Origin: Gamaleyavirus AN24P2
Sequence record: OZ035810.1
Length of the DNA: 64,000 nucleotides
Direction: 5' to 3' (one strand)
Shown here: piece by piece, positions 11,888 through 61,697 of the stretch
How the letters are laid out: the number at the start of each line of letters is the position of its first letter
Position numbering within the stretch: the stretch's first letter is position 1
Notes under the pieces: generated by a model
Databases searched by the model: none
Seen by the model: only the letters and a program-made list of their open reading frames with translations
Told to the model about the DNA's origin: nothing
Program-made: the position numbers and the translations under genes

Positions 11888-11900
11888 CAGGAGAATCCTC

Positions 11901-12356: not shown

Positions 12357-14321
12357 ATGGCTCAAATTACATGGCGTAATGTTGATGCACCTAACTTCTC
12401 TGGAGTTGGTGACAGCATTCGCACATTTGGAAGCATGATTGGTAACGCCACCTCCGGCTTAAGTGATGCACTGGGTAATTTCCAGAACGCTGCCAAGCAG
12501 GAGGCTGGCAATGCCGTCATGATGAATGCTATGCAGTATCAAGACCCAACTGAGTATCGTAATGCTTTGGCGTCTGGTGCACTGTTTCAGGGTGTTGACC
12601 CTTCTCTGATAAGCCAACGTACTCTCCAGAATCTGGATGAACGAGCAGGTACATTATTGAGTCAGCAAGGTCAACAAGGAACCAATGACTACAATAACTA
12701 TCGTTTTGGTCGATTACAGAAAAATGATTCTGCGTTAGATAATGCTTCTCCCGCTATTCGTTTATTGTCTGAAGCTTACCAGTCTGGTGACCAGAATCGT
12801 ATTAATACTGCATTGGGTCAGACTCGTGAGGCATTATCTACGCTCCCAGCTGACCAACAGTTAGAATTGTTAGGTAGTTTACAAGGACAGGGTAGTGCTG
12901 CTATTAATCAGGCGAGCAATCGTTTTGATTTGGGTGTTGCTCAACGTAATGATGCCGATAGTCAGGCAGCTATGGGTGTAATGGCACAGATTACCCGTGG
13001 TGCTGAGAACCCTAATGATGCCCGTCTGTTGGCAGAAGCATACAGTAAGAACCTGTCTCCAGTTGCACAGGCACGCTTGCAGGGATTACTGGCTAATGCT
13101 TACCCGGGTGTTTACGGTAATGGTGTAGGTGCTACGTCTGCTCCTGGTACTGCTGGTACTCGTCAGGGTTCACCTTACGATGTTACTTATCAGTTTGCTG
13201 GTACATCTACTCCTATTACTCAAATGAGTATTGGTGATGTAATTAAACACCAGGATGGTATGAAATCGAACCAGGGTGCTTCCCCTGTTGGTGCATTCCA
13301 GATTAACCAAGCTACTCTGAAAGACTTCGCTCCCAAAGTTCTTGGTTCAGATTGGCAAAGCCAGCCTCTTTCTGCTGAGAACCAGGATAAGATTGGTAAG
13401 GCTATCTTCGAGTCTCGTAAGAATGGCAACCTTAAAGATACCTGGGCTGCTCTTCCTAACTCTACCCCAGGTGCTTATAAGGACATGACTTGGGAAGAGA
13501 TTAAACCTGTTATTGCCCAAGCTGAAGTAGGGGCTGACCCACTCGCTATGGTTCAGAATAATCAAGGCAATCAGGCAGTATCTACCTTGGCTCAGGGTAT
13601 GATTGGTACACGTTCTATGCAGGATAATACCGGTAGTCTTAATACTGACTTCCTTGGTACTGTCACTGATAATACCCCAGTAGGTGAGATTGCTAACCGT
13701 CTGTTGGAAGGTGATTTTAAAGGTGCTGACCGTAACTGGGTACTGAACCGACTGAACGATATTTCTCAACGTGGAAATATGTCACCAGCTATGGCTGCTG
13801 CTGTTATGCAACGTGCACAGACTGGTGTACCAGAAGGTTATATTAGTCGTGCTATTGATGCAGTTAACCCATTCATTACCAACGAAGCCGGTAATGGTAT
13901 GCGTCTTAATGACCGTCAGGTAGAACAGTTAATTGAGGGTGTGAAACGGGGAGAACCACTGGAAGGTAGTGTTCGTAACCTAGGTCGTGCTCAGGCTATG
14001 CAGAATATTCAGGCAGCACAGACTGCATATGATGCTGCTGTAGCTGCACTGACAAATACCCAGAATAAGATTAACACCGGGCAAAGTGGTCTTACTGCAC
14101 TGTTACCTGCACGTCAGGAAGCTGTTAATAAAGCTGCTGCAATGCTACAAGCTGCACAGGCACAAGTACAGGCTGACCCAGCTAACCTGGCTCCAAAAGG
14201 TTTTCGGTCACAGGCTAGTGTGGACAGGGCACGAGCAAAGGAAGATGAAGAACGTGCTGCACGTTACCTACGTCAGGCACAAGGATTGCCTGAGTATATG
14301 CAACCAAGACAAAATCGGTAA
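12357..14321 (+). CDS. virion-module protein (internal/ejection protein candidate)
   Basis: 654 aa; Gln/Ala/Asn-rich; immediately upstream of vRNAP gene. Confidence 0.5.
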   Translation: MAQITWRNVDAPNFSGVGDSIRTFGSMIGNATSGLSDALGNFQNAAKQEAGNAVMMNAMQYQDPTEYRNALASGALFQGVDPSLISQRTLQNLDERAGTLLSQQGQQGTNDYNNYRFGRLQKNDSALDNASPAIRLLSEAYQSGDQNRINTALGQTREALSTLPADQQLELLGSLQGQGSAAINQASNRFDLGVAQRNDADSQAAMGVMAQITRGAENPNDARLLAEAYSKNLSPVAQARLQGLLANAYPGVYGNGVGATSAPGTAGTRQGSPYDVTYQFAGTSTPITQMSIGDVIKHQDGMKSNQGASPVGAFQINQATLKDFAPKVLGSDWQSQPLSAENQDKIGKAIFESRKNGNLKDTWAALPNSTPGAYKDMTWEEIKPVIAQAEVGADPLAMVQNNQGNQAVSTLAQGMIGTRSMQDNTGSLNTDFLGTVTDNTPVGEIANRLLEGDFKGADRNWVLNRLNDISQRGNMSPAMAAAVMQRAQTGVPEGYISRAIDAVNPFITNEAGNGMRLNDRQVEQLIEGVKRGEPLEGSVRNLGRAQAMQNIQAAQTAYDAAVAALTNTQNKINTGQSGLTALLPARQEAVNKAAAMLQAAQAQVQADPANLAPKGFRSQASVDRARAKEDEERAARYLRQAQGLPEYMQPRQNR

Positions 14322-14327
14322 TACTAA

Positions 14328-14351
14328 TAAAAGCCCTTCGGGGCTTTTTTC
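14328..14351 (+). terminator. rho-independent terminator
   Basis: aagccc-ttcg-gggctt hairpin followed by tttttt. Confidence 0.65.
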
Positions 14352-14415
14352 TTACACTGGCTTACTGTAGAGTAAGCTTCTTATATACGATATAAGTTTG
14401 AACAGGAAACATGCT

Positions 14416-17400
14416 ATGTCAACATTTGACCGTCTGGCAGGTTTCGCAGACAGCATCACTAATGCTAAGCAAGTCGATGTCTCTACTGCTACCTCTCAGA
14501 AGCAAGCTGCACAAGGGCAAAGCCCTTTCCAATTAACCCCAGAGAATGCTTACAATCTCCAAACTGGACGAGTAGGTAATTTAGGAATCGGTGCGTTCGA
14601 ACCAGGTTCCCTCCAAGCTGATTTCACTCAGGCTTCCCCATTAGAAATTCTTAATAAATATGGTAATGAGCAAGGTCTACAGATTCTTAATAGCCGAGCT
14701 AATGCTGCTGATGCTGTACGTCAGGACTTATCTAAACAACGTACTAACGCAGAAGCATTTGGTGATACTCTTTCTGGTGTTGGTCTTGGTGTTGCTAATA
14801 CCCTGGGGGGCATTGCTGCTCTTGGCACAGGTTTGGTCAATGATAATGCCGGGGCATCCATTGCTTCCGGGATGGATTGGTTGAATGAAGGTGTGCACAA
14901 TCTCCAGTCTGATGCACTGAATGTTACCCGTAAGGTTGTTCAGAATCAGAACCAGATTTCTGCTCAAAAGAACCAGAAACTTTACGAACAAGACATCAAA
15001 AATGGGGAGAGCAGCTTGGTTGCCTCCCTGTCTCGCATTGGTCGTGATGCTTTTGATTCTGTTGCTAATACACTTGATAACGGTATGGCTGCTACTGATG
15101 GGCTAAGTGAAGGTGTTGGTTCCCTCTTTACTGGTGGTCCACTTATCCGTGGTGTATCTGCACTCGGCAAAGTAATGGTAGGTGGTGATAAAGCCGTTAA
15201 GGGTATTACCTTAGCTGCTGAGTTAGGTTCTCGTCCTGCACAGGTTGCATTGTCTGCTGGTCGTGTTGCTGCACCTGCTATTGCAATTGGTGGTATGGAA
15301 GCTGGTGGTGCATACCAACAGACTGCTTCTGAAATCATGAAGATGTCACATCAAGAATTAGCAAGTAAGTCTCCTGTTTATCAACAACATATTGCTGATG
15401 GTTTATCTCCTGATGAAGCTCGTCGTCAGACTGCATCTGAAACAGGTATCATTGCTGCTGGCTTAACTGCTCCGGTTGCTGCTGCTACTGGTCCACTGGT
15501 ATCTAAATTTGAACTTAATCCACTTAAGGTAGGTTCACTGGTTGGTGCTGGTTCTAACATGCTGCGTGAAACTGTAGAAGAAGGTATCCAGTCTGGTACT
15601 AGTCAGTTTGCACAGAACAAAGCAATTCAAGGTAATGTAGATGCTAAACGTGACTTGCTTAAAGGTGTTGGTGAACAAGCAGGTCTTGGTGCACTTTACG
15701 GCTTCGGTAGTGCTGGGGTTGCTCAAGCTCCAGGTGCAACTGTTAAAGCTGTTGGTGCTACTGCTGGTCCAGCCCTTCGTACTACTTTAGCCGGTGCTTC
15801 CCTGGTTGGTAGTGCACTAGCAAAAGCTGCATCTCCTCTTACTAACATCCTGGTTCAACGTGGTGAAGAAGTTGCTAAACGAAATGAACAAGCATCCCCT
15901 GTAGCTGATGCTACGGTTAATGCTGCTGCACAGGAAGCTGCTGCTCAGGCAGAACAAGCACAAGCAACTGTACAGGAAGCAGTAGATGCAATGGATATTT
16001 CTCCGGAAGAGAAAGCTGCTGCTACCCAGTATGCTGCTGACTTAACTCAGGCAATGAAGTTTGACCCGGTAGAATTGGAACAAACTAACCCAGCAATCCG
16101 TGAAGCTGTTTCTGGTTCCACTAACCGTGTTGAAGCTATTCAGAAGATGGCTGACCTGGTTAATACTGCTGAGGATCCTAACGTTCAAATGGAAGCTGCA
16201 ATCCAGATGTATGACAATATCATGTCTATGGATAGCTTCATTAACCGTGACCCGGGTGCTCTGGCTAATCTGGAACAAGGTTCTCCTGCTGCTGCGATTG
16301 TAGACCAGTTCTCCGGTCTGATGGCTAACGTACAGAATACTCCGAAGGTACTCCGTGCATTTCGTGCCATCCATTCCATGATTCAGGAACAGGCTGAAGC
16401 GGGTAAATTGAAAGCTACTGAAGAAGCTAACCAAGCTCAGGCAAACAACATTGCTATGGCTGCTGATGTGTCTCCAGAAGTTCTGGATGTAGAATCAGTG
16501 AACATGGTTCTGAAGCACGCAAGTGAAGGTAAGATTACATTAGGGAATCGTCAGCGTGCTGCCCTGCAATCTGCTGCTGCTCTATTGCAAGGAGCACGAG
16601 AATTTGACGCTAAAGCAGAAGAACTGGGCTTACGTCCTCAAGACATTGTTAGTAAACAAATTAAAACCGACGAATCTCGTTCTAATGAAGGCCAGTACTC
16701 TGCGTTGCAACATGCTAAACGCATTCGTTCTGCGTACAACTCTGGTAACTTCGATTTGGCTTCCGCTTATCTCGACGACTTTATGAAGTTCGCCCAGCAC
16801 ATGCAGAATAAGGTCGGAGCGTTGAATGAGCATTTGATTTCTGGGAATGCGGATAAGAATAAGTCTGTCCATTATCAGGCTCTTACTCCCTCCCGTGAAT
16901 GGGTACGTAGTCGTACTGGCCTCGGTGTCAATCCGTATGATACCAAGTCTGTTAAGTTTGCCCAGCAAGTAGGACTGGAGGCCAAAACCGTAGCTGATAT
17001 TGTTAATGCACTTGCTACGGCTTACCCGGAGCTTAATGTTTCTCATGTTAAAGTTACTCCATTAGATTCACGTCTGGACAAGCCTGCTGCCCAGGTGGTT
17101 AAAGAGTTCCGTCAGGGCAATCTTGATGCTGCTCAATCCCAACAGACCAATGAACCAGTGAATCAGGTTGATGAAACTCCTGTTACAAAACAGGAACCAG
17201 TTACCCCTACTGTACAGACTAAACCCTCTGTTAGTGAAGCTGTTAAAACAGAACCTACTATTAAAGAGTCTAAACCACAGTCTGTAAAAGAACCTGAGAA
17301 CCAGTCCGAAAAGCAGGATGCTGCCATCACTAATGAGGATACCACTCAGGAAGTAGCTGAAACTAAAACGGAAATGGAAGCAGTGTTCCCTGTCTATAAC

Positions 17401-20400
17401 AATGACAAGACACCGAGCCAGTTCCTTAAAGCATTTGCTCTGCCGGAAGAACCTAAGACTCGTACCATTGGTTCTGAATCTCCTTTGACTGATGTTAAGC
17501 AAGCACTGTCTTCTGCTGCTCGCTTTGAAGCATTCACACAAAAAGAAAATAACGCTCTCACAAGTGATGTGATGAAACGTTATCAGGACTTACTGGGCTT
17601 TGGTGAAACTCTGAAGACTACTCTTTCTGACCGTCTGGCTAAGTTCCTTGCTAACAAAAATGTTGGTAAACGTTTTGCAGAAGGTACTGAAGCTAACCGT
17701 TGGGTAGGTGGTAAACTGCTGAATATCGTTGAACAAGACGGTGACACCTTTAAGTTCAATGACCAGTTGTTAGAGACTGCTGTACTTGCTGGTCTGCAAT
17801 GGCGACTAACTGCTACACAGAATGCTGCTGTTAAAGACATGAAAGACATAGCTGCTATTACTGGTGTAGAAGCATCCCTGTTACCTGAAGGTATTCTGGC
17901 TGAATTTGAGAATGCTCAGACTCTGGTTGAAGCTACTAGCTCACTGGCTCAAAAGATTGAATCCTACTGGGGTTTGAATCGTAATCCTAATGCACCACTG
18001 GGCTATACCAAGGGTATCCCAATGGCAATGGCTACAGAGATTCTGTCTTCCCTTATTGAGATGGGTGAAGTTAAAGAGTCTATGCTGGATGTGTCTGAAA
18101 TTGACCCAGCCTCCGATAAGACTGTAGGTCTGTACACCATTGAGAAGCTGGATGATAACGATGCCATTAACAATTTCCCTACTGCTATTGAGGAAGCTGT
18201 CCTCGTAGAACCAGAAGAGAAAATGTACTTTGGTGATGATATTCCTTCCGTGGCTCAAACTCAGTTACGTAATCCGGCTGTTAAGAATACCCCTGAACAG
18301 AAAGCTGCTCTTAAAGCAGAACAGGCTACTGAGTTCCGTGTACACATGCCTATGGTTAACTTCTATGAAGCATTAGGTCGTGACAACATTCTGGAACTGA
18401 TGGGTGCTGGTACGCTTAATCCTGAACTACTGAACGTAAACACTGCTAAATCACTGGAAGGTAAGAACCTGTCAGTGTCTATGGCATATGATTCCTTGTT
18501 TGGGGTAATCAATCAGGTTCAGGAACAGGAGAATGGACTGGATACTCCTATTCACTATGGTTATAACATGACCCGTGTAGGTCGTATGCAGATGCTTGGT
18601 AAGAATAACCCACAATCCAGTAAGCTGGTGCGTGAAGCAATTCTGCCAACCTTCTCTACTATTGACTTGAGTAATGAAAACAGCCAAACGTTCTCAGACT
18701 TCCAGTTAGGTCTGGCTCAGGCATTAGGCATCAAGGTACATAACATGTCCCGTGAAGCTATGTCTGAAAAGCTGACTAAAGCTCTGGAAGGTAACCTGAA
18801 ACCTGCTGTTGATATGATGGTTGAGTTTGATAAGTCTGGTCACTTACCAGTTGATGCAGTGGATATTCTGAAGACGTCTCTTGGTGGCGATAAATCCTTC
18901 GTAGCTCTTATGGCTCTTATGGAATATGCCCGTTACCTGAACAGTGATGACCGTGCCAACTTTAATACCCCACTGTACGTTGAAGCCGATGGTGTAACTA
19001 ACGGACCAATCAACGCAATGGTATTAATGACGGGTGGTAAGTTCACTTCAGACTGGGTTAAGAATACTGCTAAAGGTGGTCTGTTCTTTGGTAAAGCTGG
19101 TAAGACTATGAATGAACACCGTTCACAGGATGACAGTGTTGACTTGTATGAAGCATCTACCAACAGTCTGCAACAAGCTCTGAATGAGTTACGTACTACT
19201 TACCGTAACAACGTTCCGGTTATGAACCAGATGAATCATCTCCAAAAGTTAATGGACCTGTTCATTAAAGACTTTAACCTGAACGAAGACGGTACTCTGG
19301 ACCTGAAGCGTGGTATCGCTAAAAACCCACTGACTATTACCATCTATGGTTCCGGTGCTCGTGGTATTGCAGGCAAGATGGTTAGTGCAATTACTGATAC
19401 CATCTATGAACGCTTCAGTGACGTTCTGCAAGCTCGCGCTGCTGACCCTAGCATTTCCCCAGCTATGGCAATGTTTGGTAAAGAGGCTGCGTCTGAGACT
19501 GATGCTCAGGCTATGCTGGATACTTTCCTTACATCTATGGAAGCACTGACTGGTAATGTTCCAGTTATGCGTAAAGGTGAGCTGTCTATTCAACAAGTAG
19601 AAGGTGCTCTGACTGGTAAGTTAGACCCCCAGAAGTTTACTGTATCTGGTAATGCTCTGAAGAACCTGCAAGAGAACATGCTTCACTTGTTCGTTGAACC
19701 AATGCGTACTGGTATTCGAAATACTGTTGGTGAAGGTCTAATGCACTCTACTGAGAACTTGCAGAAGGCTACCCAGATTCAGTCTCTGGTATTGCAAGAC
19801 ATGTTCCAGCAAGCAGTACAGACTAAGCTGGCAGAAAAAGAAAAAGACCCAACATGGAAGAAGGGTGATTTCTTAACTCAGAAAGAACTGAACGAAATCC
19901 AGGAATCATTGTCTCCACTGGCTCCAATGATTGAGACTGGTTCGCAGACTTTCTACATTGCTGGTAGTGAGAATACTGACGTTGCTAACCAAGTACTGGC
20001 TACCAACTTAGATGACCGTATGCGTGTGCCAATGAGCATCTATGCTCCTTCACAGGCAGGTGTTGCAGGTATTCCATTTATGACCATTGGTACTGGCGAT
20101 GGCATGATGATGCAGACCCTTTCTACTATGAAAGGTGCTCCGAAGAATACCCTGAAAATCTTTGATGGTATGAACATTGGTATCAATGACATCACTGATG
20201 CAAGTCGTAAAGCTAACGAGGCTGTATATACTTCCTGGCAGGGGAATCCTATCAAGAATGTTTATGACTCCTTTGCTAAGTTCATGAAGAACGTAGACTT
20301 CAGCAAACTGTCCGATGAAACTAAACAGGCTATCGCTAAGTCTGCTTTGGAATATGACCAGCGTGAGGGTGCTACTGATGCCTTATTACGTGCAGGTGCT

Positions 20401-23400
20401 GAACAGATTGAGCGTAACTTGCGTAACATTGCTCTTGGTGTAGATATTCGCCATAAAGTAATGAACCAGGTACAGACTACTGTTGACCAGATGGCTGCTG
20501 TAGGTGCTCCTTATGTGAACAACGGTAAAATCTCTCTGGAAGGTCTGACTGTAGACCAGCAAGTAGCTAAGCTGAACGAATTGTTTGATGCTGAATTAAA
20601 CAAACGTCGTGATGCAGTACGTGCTGCTAAAGCAGAACCAGTGAAAGAAGTACCAGCAATTGAGCAGGTTGGTCGTGTACTGAAGTCTGGTGTACGTCTG
20701 CTGTCTAATACTGCTATCTCTAAGCTGGCTAAAGAGATGTCTCAGGAACAACAAGCAGTACTGAAAGAAGTACAGAAATCCCCTGCTGCTAAAGACTACA
20801 AGGTTGTCTATGGTACACCTGCCCAACTGGATGCTTACGCTATTGAGAAGAACATTACTCGCCCAGCACCGGAAGATATTGAAGCTGCTGAAGCAGGTAA
20901 TGCATACGGCTGGACTAACTTCGAAGATAAGACCATTTATCTAGTTACCCCTTCCTTAGAAACTCTGGTTCATGAATTGGTACATGCTTCTACTTTTGAA
21001 TCTGTACTGACTCACTATGAAGGTACTCCTAATGAAGCAGTTCAGAACATTGAAGACCTGATGAACCAGTTCCGTGCTCTGGATGTTAAGGATGAATCTC
21101 CGGCAGTACGTGAAGCGTATGCTGATGCACTTAATACCATTAATGGTCACTTGTCCAATGGATTCATTGAGCCATCAATGGCTAAAGCTGCTGCACTTAA
21201 CGAGTACATGGCTTGGGGCTTAACCAACCGTGAACTGATTAGTAAGCAGAAGAAAACCACTGCACTTAAGACTATGGTTCAGGCTGTGTATGAAGCAATC
21301 AAGCGTCTGGTATTTGGGCGTAAGAAAGCACCAGCTAATGCAGATGATATGTTCTCCGGCTTACTGTTTAACTCTGCTGTAGTAATGCGAGGACAAGCTC
21401 CTACTGCTGCTGTAGCTAAAGATACTACCCTGTTCCATAACAAAGCATACGGTGATAATACTCGTCTGGAAGAATTAGGAAAAACCTTCGATAAGTTAAT
21501 TACTGACTACATTGGTTCAGAACCAGTACAACAAGTAATTCGTAAAGGTAAGTTCTCTGATGCAGTAGTGAATGCAACTAAAGTAACCCGTGATGTTCAG
21601 GCTCATGGCTTCGCTATGAATATGCAGGAACAGCGTCTCTTTACTAACATTGTTGCTGCTCTGGCTACTGAGGCTGCTATTAACCCTGCTGCTTTGGCTC
21701 GTGCACAGGAATACTACACGCATGTTACTAAGAACCTGACTGTTGAAGCATTTATGGCTGACCCAGATAGTACTAACCCTGCTGACCGTTATTACGCTCA
21801 ACAGAAGTTCGATACCATCATGGGTGCTAACAATATTGAGTTTGATGCACAGGGACGTTCTTCCTTACTGCCTACCTTTGTTGGGCTGGCAATGGTAAGT
21901 GAAGAAGTACGTAAGGTACTGGCTGATATTCCTGTTATGAAAGCAGATAAGCAATCCGGTAATACAGTTGATGCAATGCTGACTAACATTGGTACTGCTG
22001 CAATGGCTAGTCTGAATGCTCGTGTAGCAGGTGATACCAAAGCTACTAATGTACAGGAAGGTATGGATGCACTGGCTCAAACAATCATGCAGACTAGCCT
22101 TAATGCACAGTCCTTTTATGATTCTGTTGCTACTCCTAGTGGTAATGCTATTGACCGTGCTAACCAGTATCTGGTGGACTCTATTGATGTATTGTCTACC
22201 CGTGCTTTAGAAGGTGCTCGTGAAGTTGCAGCTAATACCAAGAACCCGTTGGTTAAAGGTGCTGCTCATGCTGCACAACTGATTGCTGCTATTGCTACAG
22301 AGAAGAATGGTGAAATCGTAGCCGAAGGAGTTATGGCTGCAATGAACCAGGGTAAGGTATGGCAACCTTTCCATGACCTGGTTAATGACTTAACTGGTCG
22401 TACTAAGAGCAATGCTTCTGTGTATGATTTGATTAAGGCAGTTCGTGCACAGGTACAGGCTGACCGTCAACAATTCCGTGAACATTTGCCTACTACTATC
22501 GCATCTAAGTTCAGCCGTAAGCTGACTAATGATGAGTGGAAAGCAATGCACACTGGCATGGGTAAAACTGACTTGGCTGTCCTGCGTGACACTATGTCTT
22601 TGGCTGAAATCCGTGATTTGCTGTCGGACCAAAAGATTGTTGACCGTGAAGTGAATAAGCTGGAAGCAGATTTGCAGAAGCAAGCTGGACGTAACTGGCC
22701 TCTGATTAGTCGTAAATCTAAGCAACTGGCTCAGTTTATGATTAATGGTACAGTTGGTAATAACTTGCTGCGTAATGCTACTGCAATTTCTCGTTTACTG
22801 GGTGAACGTAAGACTACTAGTTCTATTGTAGATGTAGCTAAACTGGATAAACTGATTACCCTGTATGCACTGGAAGCAATGAGTAATACTGACCGTGAGA
22901 TGCTATCTTCACTGGCTCAAACAGAAGTTGATGGGATTGATTTTGCTACTTCTTACCTGGTTGGTCAGCGTAAAGATGAAATGGCTAAAGCTAAGTCTGA
23001 CATGCGTGCAACCCTGAACCAGTACAAAGGTTACATTCCTGGTGAGACTAAACAAGGTGTTAACCTGATTGTTGCTGAAGACAGTCAATTTGCTGATTTG
23101 ATTGAGAAGTCCTATGTGCGACTGGGTACTTATCAGGGTAGCTCTGCTAATCGTGGTCCAGCACGTAGTTACTACTTTGCACCAGTACAGGCACAGGCTC
23201 CATTCTCACAGGGTATCTTACAGAACGTTCGTAATACTGCTGGTGGTGTAGACCTTGGTACAGGCTTTACGATGGGTACAATGGTAGCTGGTCGTATCAC
23301 TGACAAGCCTTCCGTAGACCGTATCACTAAAGCACTGGCTCGTGGTGAACGTGGTAATGAACCACTGCTGCCTGTGTATGATGACAAAGGTAATGTAGTT

Positions 23401-24774
23401 GCCTATGAGCAATCTATTGACCCTAACATGCTGAAGCACATTGAGGGTGAGAACCATCTTGCTCGTGCAATTGGTGTATGGCGTGGTCGTCAGGTAGAGG
23501 AAGCTAAGGCCCAGCGTTTCAACGATATGCTGATTGAAAATCTGCATAGCATGTACGAGAACGACATTAAAATGTCTGCCTCTAATAAGTCCCAGTATGT
23601 GAACCTTCTTGGTTCTAAACTGGACCCAGTAACTGCTGATGCTCTTAAACTGATGAACACTGAAACACGTCAGAAAGCAGAAAGCCTGTTTGGACCCGGT
23701 GAACTGTGGGTTCGTCGTGATATGCTGAATGATGCACTAGGCTATCGTGCAGCTTCTGTAGGTGATGCCTGGTCTGGCAATTCTCGTTGGTCCCCAGAAA
23801 CACTGGATACCTTCAAGAAAGCTATGTTAGGTGTATTTGGCAACCGTGCTTACAAGTACGTAATGGGTGGTGAGAACCTGGTTCAGAACTTAGTTAAAGA
23901 AGCTAAGACTCTGATTGTAGTTAAGTCAGTAGTTGTACCTGCTGTTAACTTCTTAGCTAACCTTTACCAGATGGTTGGTCGTGGTGTACCTGTTAAGAAC
24001 ATTGCTAAGAGCATTCCACAGAAGACTGCTGAGATTAACCAGTACCTGAAATCTCGTCTGCGTCAGGTAGATGCAGAAGCAGAATTACGAGCAGCTACTA
24101 ATCCGAACCAGATTCGTAAACTTAAAGCTGAGATTCAGTCCATTACTGATAGTCATAAGCGTATGAGTATCTGGCCTCTATTAGAAGCTGGGGAGTTCTC
24201 TTCAATTGCAGATGCTGGTATTGGACGTGATGATATCCTGATTACTGAGGGTAAACTCCATGAATACATGGATAAGCTGGCTGATAAGTTACCTAAGTCA
24301 GTACGTACTGCTGGTCGTTATGCACTTATCACTAAGGATACTGCTTTGTTCCAGGGTATCCAGAAAACGGTTGAGTACTCTGACTTTATCGCTAAAGCAA
24401 TCATCTATGATGACTTAACTCAGCGTAAAGGTAAGACACGTGAAGAAGCACTTGGACGTGTAACTGAAGAGTTCATTAACTATGACCGTCTGCCGGGACG
24501 TTTCCGTGGCTATATGGAAAGTGTTGGTCTTATGTGGTTCTACAACTTTAAGATTCGTTCTGCAAAAGTTGCAGTGTCCATGATTCGTAATAACCCGGTC
24601 CATGCAGCAATGGCGATGTTGGCTCCAACTCCTACCATGTTTGGTAACGTTGGCTTACCTATTCAGGACAACATCTTTAGCATTGCTGCTAAGGATAGTC
24701 TGGATTACTCTTGGGGCTTTGGACAAGGGCTTCGTGCTCACAACCTGAACCCTTGGATGAACCTGGTAAACTAA
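14416..24774 (+). CDS. virion-encapsidated RNA polymerase (giant vRNAP)
   Basis: Single ORF of about 10.3 kb; track start 14398 is TTG, first ATG at 14416 preceded by AGGAAA; a protein of this size in this position is diagnostic of N4-like phages. Confidence 0.85.
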   Translation: MSTFDRLAGFADSITNAKQVDVSTATSQKQAAQGQSPFQLTPENAYNLQTGRVGNLGIGAFEPGSLQADFTQASPLEILNKYGNEQGLQILNSRANAADAVRQDLSKQRTNAEAFGDTLSGVGLGVANTLGGIAALGTGLVNDNAGASIASGMDWLNEGVHNLQSDALNVTRKVVQNQNQISAQKNQKLYEQDIKNGESSLVASLSRIGRDAFDSVANTLDNGMAATDGLSEGVGSLFTGGPLIRGVSALGKVMVGGDKAVKGITLAAELGSRPAQVALSAGRVAAPAIAIGGMEAGGAYQQTASEIMKMSHQELASKSPVYQQHIADGLSPDEARRQTASETGIIAAGLTAPVAAATGPLVSKFELNPLKVGSLVGAGSNMLRETVEEGIQSGTSQFAQNKAIQGNVDAKRDLLKGVGEQAGLGALYGFGSAGVAQAPGATVKAVGATAGPALRTTLAGASLVGSALAKAASPLTNILVQRGEEVAKRNEQASPVADATVNAAAQEAAAQAEQAQATVQEAVDAMDISPEEKAAATQYAADLTQAMKFDPVELEQTNPAIREAVSGSTNRVEAIQKMADLVNTAEDPNVQMEAAIQMYDNIMSMDSFINRDPGALANLEQGSPAAAIVDQFSGLMANVQNTPKVLRAFRAIHSMIQEQAEAGKLKATEEANQAQANNIAMAADVSPEVLDVESVNMVLKHASEGKITLGNRQRAALQSAAALLQGAREFDAKAEELGLRPQDIVSKQIKTDESRSNEGQYSALQHAKRIRSAYNSGNFDLASAYLDDFMKFAQHMQNKVGALNEHLISGNADKNKSVHYQALTPSREWVRSRTGLGVNPYDTKSVKFAQQVGLEAKTVADIVNALATAYPELNVSHVKVTPLDSRLDKPAAQVVKEFRQGNLDAAQSQQTNEPVNQVDETPVTKQEPVTPTVQTKPSVSEAVKTEPTIKESKPQSVKEPENQSEKQDAAITNEDTTQEVAETKTEMEAVFPVYNNDKTPSQFLKAFALPEEPKTRTIGSESPLTDVKQALSSAARFEAFTQKENNALTSDVMKRYQDLLGFGETLKTTLSDRLAKFLANKNVGKRFAEGTEANRWVGGKLLNIVEQDGDTFKFNDQLLETAVLAGLQWRLTATQNAAVKDMKDIAAITGVEASLLPEGILAEFENAQTLVEATSSLAQKIESYWGLNRNPNAPLGYTKGIPMAMATEILSSLIEMGEVKESMLDVSEIDPASDKTVGLYTIEKLDDNDAINNFPTAIEEAVLVEPEEKMYFGDDIPSVAQTQLRNPAVKNTPEQKAALKAEQATEFRVHMPMVNFYEALGRDNILELMGAGTLNPELLNVNTAKSLEGKNLSVSMAYDSLFGVINQVQEQENGLDTPIHYGYNMTRVGRMQMLGKNNPQSSKLVREAILPTFSTIDLSNENSQTFSDFQLGLAQALGIKVHNMSREAMSEKLTKALEGNLKPAVDMMVEFDKSGHLPVDAVDILKTSLGGDKSFVALMALMEYARYLNSDDRANFNTPLYVEADGVTNGPINAMVLMTGGKFTSDWVKNTAKGGLFFGKAGKTMNEHRSQDDSVDLYEASTNSLQQALNELRTTYRNNVPVMNQMNHLQKLMDLFIKDFNLNEDGTLDLKRGIAKNPLTITIYGSGARGIAGKMVSAITDTIYERFSDVLQARAADPSISPAMAMFGKEAASETDAQAMLDTFLTSMEALTGNVPVMRKGELSIQQVEGALTGKLDPQKFTVSGNALKNLQENMLHLFVEPMRTGIRNTVGEGLMHSTENLQKATQIQSLVLQDMFQQAVQTKLAEKEKDPTWKKGDFLTQKELNEIQESLSPLAPMIETGSQTFYIAGSENTDVANQVLATNLDDRMRVPMSIYAPSQAGVAGIPFMTIGTGDGMMMQTLSTMKGAPKNTLKIFDGMNIGINDITDASRKANEAVYTSWQGNPIKNVYDSFAKFMKNVDFSKLSDETKQAIAKSALEYDQREGATDALLRAGAEQIERNLRNIALGVDIRHKVMNQVQTTVDQMAAVGAPYVNNGKISLEGLTVDQQVAKLNELFDAELNKRRDAVRAAKAEPVKEVPAIEQVGRVLKSGVRLLSNTAISKLAKEMSQEQQAVLKEVQKSPAAKDYKVVYGTPAQLDAYAIEKNITRPAPEDIEAAEAGNAYGWTNFEDKTIYLVTPSLETLVHELVHASTFESVLTHYEGTPNEAVQNIEDLMNQFRALDVKDESPAVREAYADALNTINGHLSNGFIEPSMAKAAALNEYMAWGLTNRELISKQKKTTALKTMVQAVYEAIKRLVFGRKKAPANADDMFSGLLFNSAVVMRGQAPTAAVAKDTTLFHNKAYGDNTRLEELGKTFDKLITDYIGSEPVQQVIRKGKFSDAVVNATKVTRDVQAHGFAMNMQEQRLFTNIVAALATEAAINPAALARAQEYYTHVTKNLTVEAFMADPDSTNPADRYYAQQKFDTIMGANNIEFDAQGRSSLLPTFVGLAMVSEEVRKVLADIPVMKADKQSGNTVDAMLTNIGTAAMASLNARVAGDTKATNVQEGMDALAQTIMQTSLNAQSFYDSVATPSGNAIDRANQYLVDSIDVLSTRALEGAREVAANTKNPLVKGAAHAAQLIAAIATEKNGEIVAEGVMAAMNQGKVWQPFHDLVNDLTGRTKSNASVYDLIKAVRAQVQADRQQFREHLPTTIASKFSRKLTNDEWKAMHTGMGKTDLAVLRDTMSLAEIRDLLSDQKIVDREVNKLEADLQKQAGRNWPLISRKSKQLAQFMINGTVGNNLLRNATAISRLLGERKTTSSIVDVAKLDKLITLYALEAMSNTDREMLSSLAQTEVDGIDFATSYLVGQRKDEMAKAKSDMRATLNQYKGYIPGETKQGVNLIVAEDSQFADLIEKSYVRLGTYQGSSANRGPARSYYFAPVQAQAPFSQGILQNVRNTAGGVDLGTGFTMGTMVAGRITDKPSVDRITKALARGERGNEPLLPVYDDKGNVVAYEQSIDPNMLKHIEGENHLARAIGVWRGRQVEEAKAQRFNDMLIENLHSMYENDIKMSASNKSQYVNLLGSKLDPVTADALKLMNTETRQKAESLFGPGELWVRRDMLNDALGYRAASVGDAWSGNSRWSPETLDTFKKAMLGVFGNRAYKYVMGGENLVQNLVKEAKTLIVVKSVVVPAVNFLANLYQMVGRGVPVKNIAKSIPQKTAEINQYLKSRLRQVDAEAELRAATNPNQIRKLKAEIQSITDSHKRMSIWPLLEAGEFSSIADAGIGRDDILITEGKLHEYMDKLADKLPKSVRTAGRYALITKDTALFQGIQKTVEYSDFIAKAIIYDDLTQRKGKTREEALGRVTEEFINYDRLPGRFRGYMESVGLMWFYNFKIRSAKVAVSMIRNNPVHAAMAMLAPTPTMFGNVGLPIQDNIFSIAAKDSLDYSWGFGQGLRAHNLNPWMNLVN

Positions 24775-24775
24775 A

Positions 24776-24810
24776 ATAAAAAAGCCCCTCTATGAGGGGC
24801 TTTGCTTTTA
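24776..24810. terminator. bidirectional terminator at convergent late/early boundary
   Basis: gcccctc-tat-gaggggc hairpin flanked by A-run upstream and tttgctttt downstream. Confidence 0.6.
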
Positions 24811-24814
24811 GAAG

Positions 24815-25045
24815 TTAAGGTGTTTTCCACATTTTAGGCTTACGCCCTTCACTTAAAAATTTACCAGTCTCCTTAATCTTTCGTAGTGTTTCTTCAGATG
24901 GGAACCACAGGAATGCGAAGTAAAGCTTCTTAGCTACGTAACGAGTTACTCCTAACTTCTCTGCGATTTCATCAAATGAATATGTACGAACGGTATTGTT
25001 GAGAATGGCTTCACGAACAACAGAGGTAATAGATACTTGTGCCAT
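24815..25045 (-). CDS. small helix-turn-helix-like protein
   Basis: 76 aa; segment FDEIAEKLGVTRYVAKKL resembles an HTH. Confidence 0.45.
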   Translation of the reverse strand: MAQVSITSVVREAILNNTVRTYSFDEIAEKLGVTRYVAKKLYFAFLWFPSEETLRKIKETGKFLSEGRKPKMWKTP

Positions 25046-25066
25046 GCTATTTTCCTATAAATGAGA

Positions 25067-25098
25067 AAGCCCTCACTAAGAGGGCTTGTTTTGTTTTG
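25067..25098. terminator. hairpin with T-rich tail
   Basis: gccctc-actaa-gagggc followed by ttgttttgtttt. Confidence 0.4.
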
Positions 25099-25167
25099 GC
25101 TTCTAGAGCCTTACCACTTGTCGGGTAGTTTGATACCTTTCGGTAAAAACTACCTTATACCTATTTA

Positions 25168-25548
25168 TTAAATGGTGCAACCACCACCGTCACAGGTGTT
25201 GTTTTCTGCAAAGGAAGCTAAAGCCTTAGCAGTTTCTTCTTTTTCATGCAGTGCCTGACGTAGCAGGTAACCCTCCAATTCCCAAATCTTATTGAATGCA
25301 TTTTCATATGCATATTGACGACCCTTCTGCTCATCATAGATAGTCGGGTCAACACAGGCAGATACACCTTCAATTTTGAAGCCGTTTTCCAGGATAATAA
25401 CGCAATGGGTTACCAGACCCAGGTTAGCCAAATCGTCTGCAGGTAGTGCAGAAGGGTTAACGAAGGCAGATTTCACTGCATCAGCACCATTGAAATAGTA
25501 GACGCTCTTAATCTTAGCTTCAATTGATTCTTTACTTACTGTTGCCAT
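25168..25548 (-). CDS. conserved phage protein, function unknown
   Basis: 126 aa ORF, C-terminal CDGGGC motif. Confidence 0.45.
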   Translation of the reverse strand: MATVSKESIEAKIKSVYYFNGADAVKSAFVNPSALPADDLANLGLVTHCVIILENGFKIEGVSACVDPTIYDEQKGRQYAYENAFNKIWELEGYLLRQALHEKEETAKALASFAENNTCDGGGCTI

Positions 25549-25717
25549 TATTAGCCTCGTAGAGTGGTTTGAGTTTGTATTTAAACATGACTGCGTTGTT
25601 ATAGGCTACGCTACCTGCAAACACCAAAGACTTACGTCCTCGGTTATCCGTTACCTCATAGGCATACGGGGTTAGGATTAAGTCAATCATATGAATCGTC
25701 CAATAAATAGTTCTCAA
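25532..25717 (-). CDS. hypothetical small protein
   Basis: 61 aa ORF overlapping upstream gene end. Confidence 0.3.
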   Translation of the reverse strand: MRTIYWTIHMIDLILTPYAYEVTDNRGRKSLVFAGSVAYNNAVMFKYKLKPLYEANNGNSK

Positions 25718-25756
25718 ATAAAAAAGTCCCCCAGAGTGGCGGCTCTGAGGGACTTA
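25718..25756 (-). terminator. rho-independent terminator closing the tRNA-like transcription unit
   Basis: agtccc...cagag/ctctg...gggact extended stem with A-run on + (U-tract on -). Confidence 0.55.
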
Positions 25757-26000
25757 GTGCTATTTACCCATAGCTGGGAGGCTTGTATGAACTTTATGAG
25801 TACCAGGTTCAGGTAAGCTTAACTGGTGTGCTACTTGGATTGATAGTCCACTCATATTGCTCAGGCTAGGATTTAAGGAGTTCCTATTCTCCAGCGAAAT
25901 TCCCGTCGAGGGGAATAACAATACATTAGCAGCCACTGGACTGTCTTACCAGTGTTGTCTTTAGAGTGCTATGCAATCAGGACTATGTTACTGCTGAATG

Positions 26001-26077
26001 GGTGTCCACTACTGGATTTGAACCAGTGACTTTCCGATTATTAGTCGGTTGCTTTCCCCGTCTAAGCTAAGTGGACT
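26001..26077 (-). tRNA. tRNA gene, isotype unresolved
   Basis: Hand fold of reverse complement: 7-bp acceptor GTCCACT/AGTGGAC, D-stem GCTT/AAGC with GG loop, T-arm ACTGG-TTCAAAT-CCAGT, 73-nt body; anticodon loop CTAATAA gives unusual anticodon AAT; CCA not fully encoded. Confidence 0.5.
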
Positions 26078-26083
26078 TATTAT

Positions 26084-26159
26084 GGTTACCCAGGCAGGAT
26101 TCGAACCTGCGTCCTAGTTGGTTTACTAGTGGGGCTTTACCACTAAGCCTACTGGGTAT
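26084..26159 (-). tRNA. tRNA-like gene with aberrant anticodon arm
   Basis: 7-bp acceptor TACCCAG/CTGGGTA, D-arm GGCT-TAGTGGTAA-AGCC, T-arm GCAGG-TTCGAAT-CCTGC, encoded CCA, 76 nt; anticodon arm folds only as CTAGT/ACTAG with a 6-nt loop. Confidence 0.4.
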
Positions 26160-26671
26160 TAATAGGGGAGTCATGCCAGGCTTTAACTGGCTCCTTCTTC
26201 GCAATCCTTACATACCCCTACATAATTATTGCGTTAAGCTTTTTTGTTTAAGTTTAAGTGAAGGCGTTCTTGCTGACTCATTGTTTGGTTTCCTGATTAC
26301 ATGGGCTTCCACCATATCATGACGAGTTTGAGTCCGTGGAGCGACTTCCTCAGTGCAGTTACCTGCCACCTGTAAACAGGCGTTCTTTGGTCCATCGTCT
26401 TCAACCATACTGTCTTAACCATATAGGGATTCAGGCAGTTCTGGCGGTAATCAGGAAATCTGGTTTGAGATGGGAGTCCGAGTCCTGTACAGCCTTACCG
26501 TCTCCACATTGGCAGCGTATCTAGAATAGCACTTCCGGGTACGGATTTAACTGTTACATCTCAAATGTGGTAGGGGCGTCCAGAGGTTTCATCTGATACT
26601 TACGCCGTCGTATGGTTACGACTTACCCCCATAATTCTTACAATTCAGAGTAGCACTGTTGCAGTCGTCAC

Positions 26672-26752: not shown

Positions 26753-26757
26753 CTTTG

Positions 26758-53355: not shown

Positions 53356-54573
53356 TTAGCTAAGGGCATAATCGGCCTCCAGAATGTCTTGCCAGAGGCT
53401 GTCATCCAGCTTACCAGCAGAGAACTCTTGTCCAAGTACCTGGGACAGGATGAATCCCAGTAGGTCACTCTTCGCAATGTCAGACAGAATCTGATTGTAC
53501 TGACGACGTAGGTCATTACCATAGTTAGGGTGGCAACGGAAGCAGTCATGTACAGTCATTACAGGGAATGGCTTCTTAGGCATAGTGTCAATCATATCTG
53601 CTACTACTTGACGGTCTACCAATGCAATAGTATTCGGGTCAAGGAAGTCTAGGATAGACAGCGACAGGAATCCAGATTTCTCATAATGATTCCAGATTTC
53701 CATAGTTTTCTCTTGGTTCCCTTCAATAACAGGGTATTCACTTGGTCCGATATCGCACAGTTCACGTACATAGGCAACCAGTTTAGGATCGAAGTTACAA
53801 CGACGCAGCATCTCACGTACCACCATTCCATCAATAGAGTGAGTGATGTTAGCAGAAAGCATACGGGTCTTCTCTTCAGTACCCTGAACCATACGAGTGA
53901 TGTCAAATGGCTTACCTAAGAAGTTAACAGTTTGTACTTCTGGAACCATGACCTTAATGACAGCATGGAAGTTGTCAGGTAATACCCATACGTAACGGTT
54001 AGCATCCGGGTTACCACATTGCAGTAAGAACTTGTTCAATGCCCAAGGACCACTAGCAACAGTTTCCATTACATTCTCAAAAGTCTTGAGACGAATACCT
54101 TCACCGAATACTTCTTTAGGCTTGGCTTCTGAACCGTAGAATGCAGTCATAACTGCCTGCTTAGTGTCACTACGTTTAATACGAGATGCTTCACCAAGGA
54201 TGTCCAGCATCTTATGATAGATAACTGTATAAGCATCACGACGTAATGGCTTACCATTCTCTCCCATGTAATTAACTACGTTACACAGTTCAGCAGCAGA
54301 ACGGTCACCAGTCAGGCAAGCCAGTAACTGCAATCCTGACGATGTAGCATCCAGAGCCACGGCATACCCAATAGGCTTACCTGCTTTCATGTCTTTCCAT
54401 GCGTTTAAGCCAGCATAGAACAGTGCAGATTCTTCAGCTTCATCTACCAGATTAAGTAGGTTAGCCTCATTCTCATCGAACCAAGTAATACGTTCATCCC
54501 AGGTCTTTTTATCCAGACCATAGTTATTGGCGATGTCTACTTTCAAGTATTCTTTAGCGGTTAACAGTTGCAT
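53356..54573 (-). CDS. RNA polymerase II large subunit (C-terminal part of a split T7-like RNAP)
   Basis: 405 aa; T7 RNAP motif A-like DATSSGLQLLA and motif C-like VHDCF. Confidence 0.75.
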   Translation of the reverse strand: MQLLTAKEYLKVDIANNYGLDKKTWDERITWFDENEANLLNLVDEAEESALFYAGLNAWKDMKAGKPIGYAVALDATSSGLQLLACLTGDRSAAELCNVVNYMGENGKPLRRDAYTVIYHKMLDILGEASRIKRSDTKQAVMTAFYGSEAKPKEVFGEGIRLKTFENVMETVASGPWALNKFLLQCGNPDANRYVWVLPDNFHAVIKVMVPEVQTVNFLGKPFDITRMVQGTEEKTRMLSANITHSIDGMVVREMLRRCNFDPKLVAYVRELCDIGPSEYPVIEGNQEKTMEIWNHYEKSGFLSLSILDFLDPNTIALVDRQVVADMIDTMPKKPFPVMTVHDCFRCHPNYGNDLRRQYNQILSDIAKSDLLGFILSQVLGQEFSAGKLDDSLWQDILEADYALS

Positions 54574-54630: not shown

Positions 54631-54870
54631 TTAGCCAGCATTAAATGATGACAATACTATTCCTGGTTCCACACCTTCGGTGGCAATACCTAGGTACTCG
54701 ATGTGCACTCTCTCAGGAGAGGAACACCAGGCGGAAGACAGATTCCATTCTCCGTCTGGATTAATAAGGCGAGCTTCTTCTTTAGTTTTGGCCGCTACAA
54801 CGGCAGAATCGTATGTATCCCACCCTGTGTTCTCTTCCTGGCTAATAAGCCATAGTTTTAATCTACTCAT
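54631..54870 (-). CDS. hypothetical small protein between the two RNAPII subunit genes
   Basis: 79 aa ORF. Confidence 0.4.
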   Translation of the reverse strand: MSRLKLWLISQEENTGWDTYDSAVVAAKTKEEARLINPDGEWNLSSAWCSSPERVHIEYLGIATEGVEPGIVLSSFNAG

Positions 54871-55681
54871 CGTTTACTAACTCCTTATTAGCGAACTCCA
54901 GTACAGCTTTGTTGTAGCTGGTTCCCTGATAGTTAATGTGATAGCCCTGAGCGTAAGTACGCCCACGTTTGTCATATTTGTGACCTAGTGAGAAGTTATT
55001 ACCTTCTTTGGACACTAACTCCATTACTTCCTTAGCAGTACGGCTGTACTTCTCAAAGGCTTTAACACGTTTCTCATAATCCTGACGGGTTTCGCCCTCT
55101 TTGGGCTTATCCATATTAGGACGGGAGTCTTTTACATAGTTAGCAACGTCCCAGTTAATGCTTAGACGTTGATTATTCATACGGTTGATGTGGTCAAGAC
55201 AGACATCCATCTCATGATGGTTCTTCTTGAGGATGATACTTCCTCTGCTCTCGTAGTAACCTGTATCACGGTTACACAGAACAGGCTTAGGAGCACTTAC
55301 GATAGGTAATGGATATTGGAATGCTTCCAGTTCCATCTGTACATCTTCACTAATCTCATAGATAACACCGAATTTGTCGATGGTAGGGTCATAGTTGAAG
55401 CAGTCATTCTCTGCCATTTTATACAGACAGTCGGCGATGTACTGAGCATCATCTGAGTGGTTCATGAGAGAGCCAATCATAGTCTGAAGGTCAGCACGTT
55501 TATGTAGGGCAATCTGCACCATTGCATCAATGAGCAGCTTATAATCAATTTCCAAATAGGCAGCGAATGCCTTAAAGTCAATTTCTTCGGAGTCCTCAAA
55601 TTCCTTCCTCATACGAGGGAGTAACTGGCATTTATTAAACAGTGTTTCTAAAGTCTTTTGATGCTCAATGGATGCGTACAT
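54863..55681 (-). CDS. RNA polymerase II small subunit (N-terminal part of a split T7-like RNAP)
   Basis: 272 aa; KYDKRGRTYAQGYHINYQG parallels T7 RNAP DWRGRVYAVSMFNPQG region. Confidence 0.7.
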   Translation of the reverse strand: MYASIEHQKTLETLFNKCQLLPRMRKEFEDSEEIDFKAFAAYLEIDYKLLIDAMVQIALHKRADLQTMIGSLMNHSDDAQYIADCLYKMAENDCFNYDPTIDKFGVIYEISEDVQMELEAFQYPLPIVSAPKPVLCNRDTGYYESRGSIILKKNHHEMDVCLDHINRMNNQRLSINWDVANYVKDSRPNMDKPKEGETRQDYEKRVKAFEKYSRTAKEVMELVSKEGNNFSLGHKYDKRGRTYAQGYHINYQGTSYNKAVLEFANKELVNDE

Positions 55682-56181: not shown

Positions 56182-56234
56182 CGCATATTCTCCTAAATGT
56201 GATTAATAACCAAAAGCTGCGGAGCAGCTATTAC

Positions 56235-60207: not shown

Positions 60208-60588
60208 TTAGAAAGTCAGTTTACGAGCATATTTATTCTCGTCTGCTGGGATGTCAGCAACCTCTGCTTTCACACGACGAAGTTGAACTTGCAGGTTAAT
60301 GATACCTTCTTCACCTGGTTCCAGGTTCTGAGCATACTCAATTAACTGTTCCAGCAAGTCATTCTGTGCACAACGCATAGCACGGAAGTCAGCATTGCTG
60401 CTATTAGTAGGCAGTGGCTCCTGAGTATCCAGTGGAATACCAGTAGGCAGAGAGATGAACTTCTCTTCTTCAGAGCCTTCATTAGCTACATAACCAATGT
60501 TCAACCAGAACTGAGCTTTTGGTTTATCAGTTTTAGCAGTGGTAGCAGCAGCGTTAGATTGACCGAAAGTGAATTTTTGAATAGACAT
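60208..60588 (-). CDS. hypothetical early protein
   Basis: ORF 60208..60687; hydrophobic extension dropped in favour of internal ATG ([10 protein letters not shown]...). Confidence 0.4.
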
Positions 60589-60722
60589 TTTGTACTCTCC
60601 AGATAAATGATTATTTGATTGATGGGTTTGTCTGTCGGTGACTAAACCCAAGAAAAGACTTAAGATTTCAATGATTAGTGGATGCATTTACATCATCCAT
60701 AAGACGCGGAGCGTCCTGGTTT

Positions 60723-61172: not shown

Positions 61173-61496
61173 TTAGTCTTTAGTCAGGATGTCAATTACT
61201 TTTGAATATTCTGCGTTATAGATACGAGCGTTCTCAGAATCCTTACAGAATTCCTCAATACTTTTCTTACGCAGAGTCTCAGTCATAGCTGTTTCTTCAG
61301 CTAATTTGTTTACGAATGTATGCATTTCTAATTTAGTACGAATGGCTTGTTTCTCTGCCATAGTACTTACATATGAGTTAAGCATACCAACTGCTTTAGT
61401 AGCAGTACCAAATGTATCTGCAACAGTAGTAGCAGCAGAGTTAACAGTACCAAGTAAAGTTCCTGCGGTCATACGTACAGTAGCTTGAGTAGTCAT
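61173..61496 (-). CDS. hypothetical early protein
   Basis: 107 aa ORF downstream of a structured 200-bp intergenic region. Confidence 0.45.
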   Translation of the reverse strand: MTTQATVRMTAGTLLGTVNSAATTVADTFGTATKAVGMLNSYVSTMAEKQAIRTKLEMHTFVNKLAEETAMTETLRKKSIEEFCKDSENARIYNAEYSKVIDILTKD

Positions 61497-61697
61497 GATG
61501 ATAGCTCCAATAGTTGATGATAGGACGACATGTCCATAACATGCGGAGCATGTGTAACGTGTAGGGTGGGGTAGGGTAGCGGCTACACCGTCAACATACC
61601 GGGGGGGCTAGTTGAGTGTAATGGTGTAGCCTCAGCCACACCACTGTAGCTGTACATAGCTATGACCAAAATGGTATGCAAAAATATGATAGCTATC

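Follow-up and report, generated by a model that had tools for sequence, protein, structure and literature searches.

The DNA analyzed here, hereafter the window, is a 64,000-nucleotide stretch from Gamaleyavirus AN24P2 (OZ035810.1), and its positions 14,416 to 24,774 raise two connected questions: what does so long a reading frame encode, and at which codon does its translation begin? A preliminary description had taken it for the virion RNA polymerase (vRNAP) gene of an N4-like phage. Our analysis leaves us in very little doubt that 14416-24774 on the plus strand, as judged from its sequence, is an intact vRNAP gene, the orthologue of N4 gp50 in a G7C-like Escherichia phage, and that it starts at the ATG at 14416.

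A Megablast search with positions 14300-24800 returned a 100% full-length match to OZ035740.1, likewise Gamaleyavirus AN24P2, at record positions 21525-32025. From the match coordinates, the window corresponds to positions 7226-71225 of that record, which carries no annotation. The Escherichia and Shigella N4-like phages listed (U1G, PhAPEC7, IME11, PGN829.1, and others) are 91.5-93.9% identical in nucleotide sequence over 10.5 kb, and in most of these relatives the gene is annotated as virion RNA polymerase. The match to G7C, at 94.4% nucleotide identity, is to a 551-bp start region only. Judged by its high nucleotide identity to members of the genus over the 10.5 kb queried, the phage is a G7C-like Gamaleyavirus of the Schitoviridae. 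The sequence of AN24P2 is already public, and work on N4 has already characterized this gene family well, both in structure and in mechanism, with full-length cryo-EM structures of vRNAP published in 2026 (PMC13434306, PMC13492108).

The reading frame and the protein it encodes

The ORF listing of the window gives a single uninterrupted plus-strand ORF at 14398..24774, which amounts to 3458 aa when counted from a TTG codon; the closest in-frame stop on its 5' side is a TAG at 14368-14370. Translation from the ATG at 14416 yields 3452 aa followed by a TAA stop at 24772-24774, with no internal stops, in line with the single ORF of about 3450 codons that had been described. An internal frameshift splitting the ORF, which the preliminary description had named as evidence against its reading, is absent: there is one ORF, and it translates cleanly. 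In DNA of 43-45% G+C, an open frame of ∼3450 codons would not be expected by chance, with a probability of (61/64)^3450, or ∼1e-72. The coding sequence has a terminator on either side. Upstream, after the gp51 homologue, a stem-loop detected at 14329..14350 (+) constitutes an intrinsic terminator (AAAAGCCCTTCGGGGCTTTTTT); its stem is almost invariant in the 14 genomes that we aligned, and in PhAPEC7 and PhAPEC5 the corresponding sites carry ARNold terminator annotations. Downstream, a G+C-rich hairpin at 24781..24803 (AAAGCCCCTCATAGAGGGGCTTT) forms a bidirectional intrinsic terminator that separates the vRNAP gene from the convergent minus-strand genes, and its homologues are annotated on both strands in PhAPEC7.

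The CDS at 14416..24774 (+; 3452 aa plus TAA) is assigned as the gp50 homologue from the ORF, homology, Pfam, and PHROG evidence taken together. Using phmmer against PDB sequences, we found that the protein is colinear with the full-length N4 vRNAP chains (3500 aa; 9pnr/11gp; residues 1-3451 vs 1-3499, E = 0), that the crystallized mini-vRNAP entries 2PO4, 3C2P, and 3Q0A match query residues 1000-2071 (E = 0), and that chain 11fw_A (2493 residues) matches residues 1002-3451. All four Pfam matches are vRNAP-specific domains with E values of 1e-28 to 1e-100: vRNAP_dom_2 at aa 1294-1409, vRNAP_plug at 1426-1507, N4_RNAP_helical at 1585-1801, and vRNAP_dom at 1883-2027. No other families matched, and RNA_pol (PF00940) is absent among the matches to the protein at E ≤ 0.01. 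The PHROGs match is phrog_2206, "virion RNA polymerase". The identification as an N4-like vRNAP is borne out by these searches and by the conserved catalytic and promoter-reading residues described below. The preliminary description had proposed aligning the protein to known vRNAPs, with a lack of similarity to their central domain as grounds for rejection; the alignment places the central T7-like domain at aa 987-2073, 70.9% identical to N4 mini-vRNAP and matching it with E = 0.

For the global alignment, we used N4 gp50 translated from NC_008720 (protein YP_950528.1). Overall identity is 67.4% and the indels are all short; by N4 region, identity is 60.8% over residues 1-997 (N-terminal domain, NTD, plus linker), 70.9% over the polymerase domain, and 69.3% over 2104-3500 (C-terminal domain, CTD, plus linker), so that the NTD is the part most divergent from N4. 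The NTD is encoded by 14416..17157 (+), aa 1-914, which correspond to N4 1-919 under the published domain definition (PMC13492108). It is followed at 17158..17373 (+; aa 915-986) by a low-complexity, P/T/K/E/Q-rich linker to the polymerase, the most variable part of the protein; in the query bin that contains it (aa 801-1000), identity to close relatives goes down to 78-89%. In N4, this linker comprises residues 907-1006 (PMC13434306). The T7-like single-subunit RNA polymerase domain occupies 17374..20634 (+; aa 987-2073), equivalent to N4 mini-vRNAP 998-2103 or Pol 1008-2104, and the CTD occupies 20665..24771 (+; aa 2084-3452), equivalent to N4 2123-3500. The N4 CTD is alpha-helical, autoinhibits the polymerase, and is required for encapsidation (PMC13434306, PMC13492108). 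The junction of NTD and Pol (N4 996-1008) has the longest indel relative to N4 gp50, 13 residues; the remaining indels lie in or beside the two interdomain linkers and run on into the N-terminal ends of the Pol domain and the CTD.

The catalytic motifs are all as in N4: TRVGR at residues 1386-1390, the motif A Asp (D1525) in the context YVEADGVTNG, the motif B residues R1632, K1636, and Y1644 in KRGIAKNPLTITIYGSG (R-x3-K-x7-YG), and the motif C Asp (D1917) in KIFDGMNIG. We take the corresponding N4 residue numbers to be D559, R666, K670, Y678, and D951. That N4 vRNAP contains the TxxGR, A, B, and C motifs, and what these motifs do, has been described (PMC4496689). The residues that read the hairpin promoter are likewise conserved in five cases out of five, with K1081, R1086, W1096, D1867, and R1870 standing for K114, R119, W129, D901, and R904 of N4 mini-vRNAP, whose roles in hairpin reading are established (PMC4496689, PMC13492108). 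From this conservation, transcription by the AN24P2 vRNAP would be predicted to be rifampicin-resistant and dependent on hairpins and supercoiling.

These observations bear directly on two other accounts of the gene. One takes the ORF for something other than an RNA polymerase, in keeping with the product names "DNA polymerase", "translation initiation factor 2", "gram positive anchor domain protein", and "single strand DNA binding protein" that stand in the records of U1G, PBM-2/3, PD205, ST4, phi G17, ECBP1 (JX415535), and K60PH164C1. Genes annotated as vRNAP, however, share 80-97% identity with the records that bear such names; moreover, the protein is 71% identical to the crystallized N4 polymerase domain with every catalytic residue kept, and Pfam and PHROGs return vRNAP families only. 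The names are automated mislabels, and we give this account next to no credence. The other account holds that the gene is a decayed, inactive polymerase copy retained as a structural or ejection protein, a reading raised by the noncatalytic roles of the NTD and CTD in N4, for which we found no support. Against it stand the absence of any stop or frameshift, the conservation of all catalytic and promoter-recognition residues tested, the intact cognate hairpin promoters, and an identity to close relatives of 95-97% over the full length; its probability, too, must be negligible. An intact, polymerase-encoding gp50 orthologue is the reading that we carry forward.

Start codon and upstream intergenic region

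The sequence at the 5' end of the ORF reads GATATAAGT TTG AAC AGG AAA CAT GCT ATG TCA ACA TTT, in which the TTG occupies 14398-14400 and the first in-frame ATG occupies 14416-14418. The ATG is preceded at a distance of 7 nt by a Shine-Dalgarno sequence, AGGAA, at 14404..14408 (+), which does not vary among the 14 genomes, whereas the local sequence upstream of the TTG at 14398 contains nothing resembling one. In 13 of the 13 annotated relatives examined (PhAPEC7, IME11, 24-32N, U1G, G7C, PhAPEC5, ECBP1, St11Ph5, KP8, VLCpiP4a, PD205, phi G17, and N4), the vRNAP CDS begins at the ATG homologous to 14416. The preliminary description spoke of an annotated start at a TTG, which does not hold: the identical record OZ035740.1 is unannotated, and the annotated relatives all use ATG. 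The TTG at 14398 is a mechanical ORF limit, the longest extension made by an ORF finder, with no published annotation behind it. The same kind of overextension is seen at the gp52 homologue, where the mechanical ORF starts at TTG 11880 upstream of ATG 11901.

Comparison among genomes indicates where the protein begins. Across genomes, four of the five codons between the TTG and the ATG change nonsynonymously (N/Y, K/N, H/P, A/T), and the sole invariant one is AGG, the core of the Shine-Dalgarno sequence. After the ATG, the amino acid is kept in 17 of the first 21 codons, and seven vary synonymously only. This pattern of substitution implies that purifying selection on the protein begins at the ATG. 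In the phmmer alignment, Met1 of N4 gp50 (MSVFDRLAGFADS) is aligned with the AN24P2 Met (MSTFDRLAGFADS). Among more distant matches found by tblastn, the alignment starts one residue past the Met in the 19-32_Axy phages and phiAxp-3 (Achromobacter) and in Pseudomonas phage inbricus, and three residues upstream of it in JWAlpha and JWDelta.

Could the TTG nonetheless be the start of the same gene, giving a protein 6 residues longer (MNRKHA-MSTF...)? The codon is in frame, it is the first start-type codon past the in-frame TAG at 14368, and it is invariant in 14 of 14 genomes, a conservation that by itself leaves room for occasional use. Yet it lacks an upstream Shine-Dalgarno sequence, none of the 13 annotated relatives uses it, N4 gp50 begins at the homologous Met, and the intervening codons change the amino acid in four of five cases while the invariant AGG belongs to the Shine-Dalgarno sequence of the ATG. 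The TTG furthermore sits within an invariant 12-nt block that resembles a promoter or regulatory element; should the TATAAG at 14391-14396 serve as a -10 box, RNA synthesis from it would start no earlier than the TTG. We consider initiation at the TTG very improbable. The comparative evidence instead strongly favors the ATG at 14416 as the start, with the TTG probably conserved as part of a noncoding signal, and the preference for the ATG and its good ribosome binding site in the preliminary description is upheld by the relatives, the Shine-Dalgarno sequence, the substitution pattern, and the alignment with Met1 of N4. The two starts predict different N-terminal peptides, (M)STFDRLAGFADSITNAK for the ATG and MNRKHAMSTFDR for the TTG. 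In the accessible literature, we did not find an experimental N-terminus of virion-derived N4 vRNAP; the recombinant N4 enzyme of the 2026 cryo-EM papers was cloned from Met1, and overall mass spectrometry coverage only is given there (PMC13434306, PMC13492108).

The 14-genome intergenic alignment, which includes N4, shows that the TTG is invariant along with AGGAA and with the whole of the noncoding block GATATAAGTTTG at 14389..14400 (+), which holds both the -10-like TATAAG and the TTG and is the same in 14 of 14 genomes. The block is unique in the window. The idea that the GATATAAG(TTTG) box is a late-promoter motif common to other late genes was rejected on the grounds that it, too, is unique in the window, and a simple scan found no full or canonical sigma-70 promoter upstream of the vRNAP gene. 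A conserved 8-bp hairpin, GGCTTACT-GTAG-AGTAAGCT, at 14359..14378 (+), separates the terminator from the TATAAG box. A hairpin is kept at the same place in four lineages, namely, the main clade of Gamaleyavirus, ECBP1/St11Ph5, Kaypoctavirus, and N4, with differing stem sequences (GGCTTACT/AGTAAGCT, TTCACT/AGTGAA, CACACT/AGTGTG, and TTACACTA/TAGTGTGA). This comparison was made by folding each sequence, the hairpins of the four lineages being out of register in the MAFFT alignment. The folding of the 109-nt intergenic region has z = -3.0 relative to shuffles.

As to function, the GATATAAGTTTG block is possibly the -10 region of a late promoter at which host RNA polymerase transcribes the vRNAP gene, and for the hairpin the candidate roles are those of a second terminator, of an operator, or of a component of a late promoter. 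A promoter of the vRNAP type was rejected for this hairpin: it has a 4-nt loop (GTAG/CTAC) and is without a GRA loop and a GC stem top. By its sequence, the pair formed by hairpin and TATAAG box looks like a gene-specific regulatory module. More tentatively, the terminator, the hairpin, and the GATATAAGTTTG block may together be a dedicated control element that throttles or times vRNAP synthesis relative to the abundant gp51, with the TTG as part of a DNA or RNA signal. Such an element would fit the ∼4 vRNAP copies per virion as well as a block that occurs once in the genome and is kept in three genera; even so, we think it rather unlikely that this is what the region does.

Early promoters and a course of infection modeled on N4

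We scanned the window for hairpins that have a GRA loop and a perfect stem of 5-7 bp, and then required the N4 features -8G, -9C, -10G, -11G, -12A, and +1C of the template strand. This left three sites in total, all with the plus strand as template. The candidate counterpart of N4 P1, ACATGC-GGA-GCATGT at 61539..61553 (-), points leftward into the gp1 homologue (61173..61496). That of P2 at 60703..60715 (-), GACGC-GGA-GCGTC on the plus-strand template, lies upstream of the gp2 homologue (60208..60687), and that of P3 at 56215..56229 (-), AGCTGC-GGA-GCAGCT, lies upstream of the gp15/gp16 homologues for the subunits of RNAPII, which are encoded on the minus strand at 54863..55681 and 53356..54573. 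As a positive control, the scan of N4 bases 1-12000 recovered P1-P3 at ∼102, 573, and 4562, directly upstream of gp1, gp2, and gp15; as a negative control, 40 Markov-1 random windows gave 0 matches. The hairpin at 56215 is identical in sequence to that of N4 P3, and in both phages GGA-loop promoters precede gp1, gp2, and RNAPII.

The gene neighborhood is also that of N4. Ahead of the vRNAP gene stand, in sequence, portal, gp58, gp57, major capsid protein, gp55, gp54, gp53, gp52, and gp51, an arrangement that matches the gp59-to-gp51 order of N4, and in both phages the vRNAP gene follows gp51 in the late operon, that of N4 being a late ejection-protein operon (PMC13434306). The gp52, gp51, and gp50 homologues are adjacent on one strand, and the first two are 64.8% and 48.8% identical to N4 gp52 and gp51, respectively. 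Taken together, the hairpins, the synteny, and the homologues imply that AN24P2 has not only the polymerase but also its promoters and early targets, along with both partner ejection proteins.

In N4, vRNAP is present in the virion and is injected at infection (PMC4496689, PMC13434306); in the G7C record, presence in the virion is noted for gp51 only. By analogy with N4, we infer packaging, injection, hairpin-dependent transcription, and autoinhibition for the AN24P2 enzyme, and likewise the mode in which its gene is transcribed. Late in infection, host sigma-70 RNA polymerase activated by N4SSB would transcribe the gene, as in N4 (PMC4496689, PMC13434306, PMC13492108), and about four copies of the ∼380 kDa protein would be packed into the capsid, for which the CTD would be required. 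At infection, gp52 and gp51 would build a periplasmic tunnel and an outer-membrane complex, and vRNAP would thread the channel of ∼30-35 Å with its domains loosely joined. Until a hairpin promoter binds, the enzyme would be kept inactive by the CTD and the plug/motif B loop. The promoter hairpins, with a stem of 5-6 bp and a GGA loop, would be extruded by supercoiling and stabilized by host SSB, and in the cytoplasm the central T7-like domain would recognize the three of them. Transcription from P1-P3 would then lead to early proteins, including the cofactors and subunits of the second phage polymerase, and would help to draw the genome in. In the sequence of the AN24P2 orthologue, we see nothing pointing to a departure from this scheme.

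Annotation and comparison with known polymerases

In practical terms, the unannotated record can confidently take a CDS at 14416..24774, virion RNA polymerase, together with three early hairpin promoters. A second practical use is the correction of the misnamed vRNAP genes in several GenBank relatives, the wrong product names being those in the records from U1G to K60PH164C1 enumerated above; one GenBank relative also annotates an antisense ORF within the vRNAP gene. Beyond correct annotation, the significance is small, since the same start is already annotated in dozens of nearly identical relatives.

The closest comparison is with the G7C-like vRNAPs (G7C gp50, PhAPEC7, IME11, 24-32N, and U1G), which share 95-97% amino acid identity and the 3450-aa length class with the AN24P2 protein. 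In these phages, the start context, the upstream terminator, the hairpin, and the Shine-Dalgarno sequence are identical to those of AN24P2, and the proteins differ from it by point differences and by linker indels of 1-2 aa. U1G and PD205, in contrast, have 132 extra aa in the linker that AN24P2 is without.

N4 belongs to the genus Enquatrovirus and AN24P2 to Gamaleyavirus, and N4 gp50 (2PO4, 3C2P, 3Q0A, 9PNQ-9PNW, 11GP) has the three-domain layout in common with the AN24P2 protein: an NTD, a linker, a T7-like Pol with plug and motif B loop, and a helical CTD. At 3452 aa against 3500 aa, the AN24P2 protein has 48 residues fewer, and its deletions relative to N4 concentrate at the domain junctions, N4 982-1022, which takes in the NTD-Pol linker and the first part of Pol, and 2111-2250, which takes in the Pol-CTD linker and the first part of the CTD. 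More distantly, N4 vRNAP is akin to the T7-like single-subunit RNA polymerases (PMC4496689), and T7 RNAP and mitochondrial RNAP share with the AN24P2 protein the right-hand polymerase, the TxxGR/DxxGR motif, motifs A, B, and C, and the two catalytic Asp residues. Outside the motifs, similarity to T7-like RNAPs is very low, and vRNAP carries ∼2400 extra residues. Unlike those enzymes, the AN24P2 polymerase, as a member of the vRNAP class, would by analogy be packaged in the virion and would read a DNA hairpin instead of a duplex promoter.

Sequences upstream of the vRNAP gene

Between the intrinsic terminator that follows the gp51 homologue (14329-14350) and the ATG start of the virion RNA polymerase (vRNAP) gene at 14416, a hairpin occupies 14359-14378. 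The stem sequence of this hairpin differs among the four lineages that keep it, which are N4, Gamaleyavirus, Kaypoctavirus, and the ECBP1 group. Next comes the 12-nt block GATATAAGTTTG (14389-14400), which occurs once in the window and is unchanged among 14 genomes from three genera. The block contains a -10-like TATAAG together with the TTG by which the vRNAP ORF is extended. Farther upstream, the gp52 homologue is listed as an ORF at 11880-12344, from a TTG at 11880; alignment with N4 gp52 (MDTNFLFG vs MDLSFFTG) identifies the ATG at 11901 as the likely start.

Variation and annotation of the vRNAP gene

Within vRNAP, variability is highest in the low-complexity linker between the N-terminal and polymerase domains. 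The Gamaleyavirus phages U1G and PD205 encode a 3584-aa protein with 132 additional residues in this linker, an insertion that AN24P2 lacks and that corresponds to window positions ∼17326-17370. The vRNAP orthologue is misnamed in the public records of U1G, PD205, phi G17, JX415535 (ECBP1), and OY978778, where the wrong product names are "DNA polymerase", "translation initiation factor 2", "gram positive anchor domain protein", and "single strand DNA binding protein". A 138-aa ORF runs antisense inside the gene (16630-17046, minus strand). Phage 24-32N has a homologue of it under the label hypothetical protein (Gp58), which is probably a spurious call.

Sequences downstream of the vRNAP gene

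No homologue of DUF2829 (N4 gp49) was found directly 3′ of the vRNAP gene (24804-25167), whereas PhAPEC7 and IME11 carry one immediately downstream. The only ORF between the vRNAP gene and the gp48-like ORF (25168-25548) is a 76-aa reading frame on the minus strand (24815-25045). Two adjoining tRNA genes lie at 26001-26158 (minus strand), one a tRNA-Ile (anticodon aat) and the other with an anomalous anticodon call; in the matching area of PhAPEC7, a "tRNA-Xle" is annotated.

Early hairpin promoters

The gp1, gp2, and RNAPII homologues are each preceded by an N4-type early hairpin promoter, giving three in the window (61539-61553, 60703-60715, and 56215-56229, respectively). In every case, the template is the plus strand, and the promoter comprises a stem-GGA-stem with -8G, -9C, and +1C. 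Their counterparts in N4 are P1-P3, and the hairpin sequence of N4 P3 is the same as that of its counterpart here.
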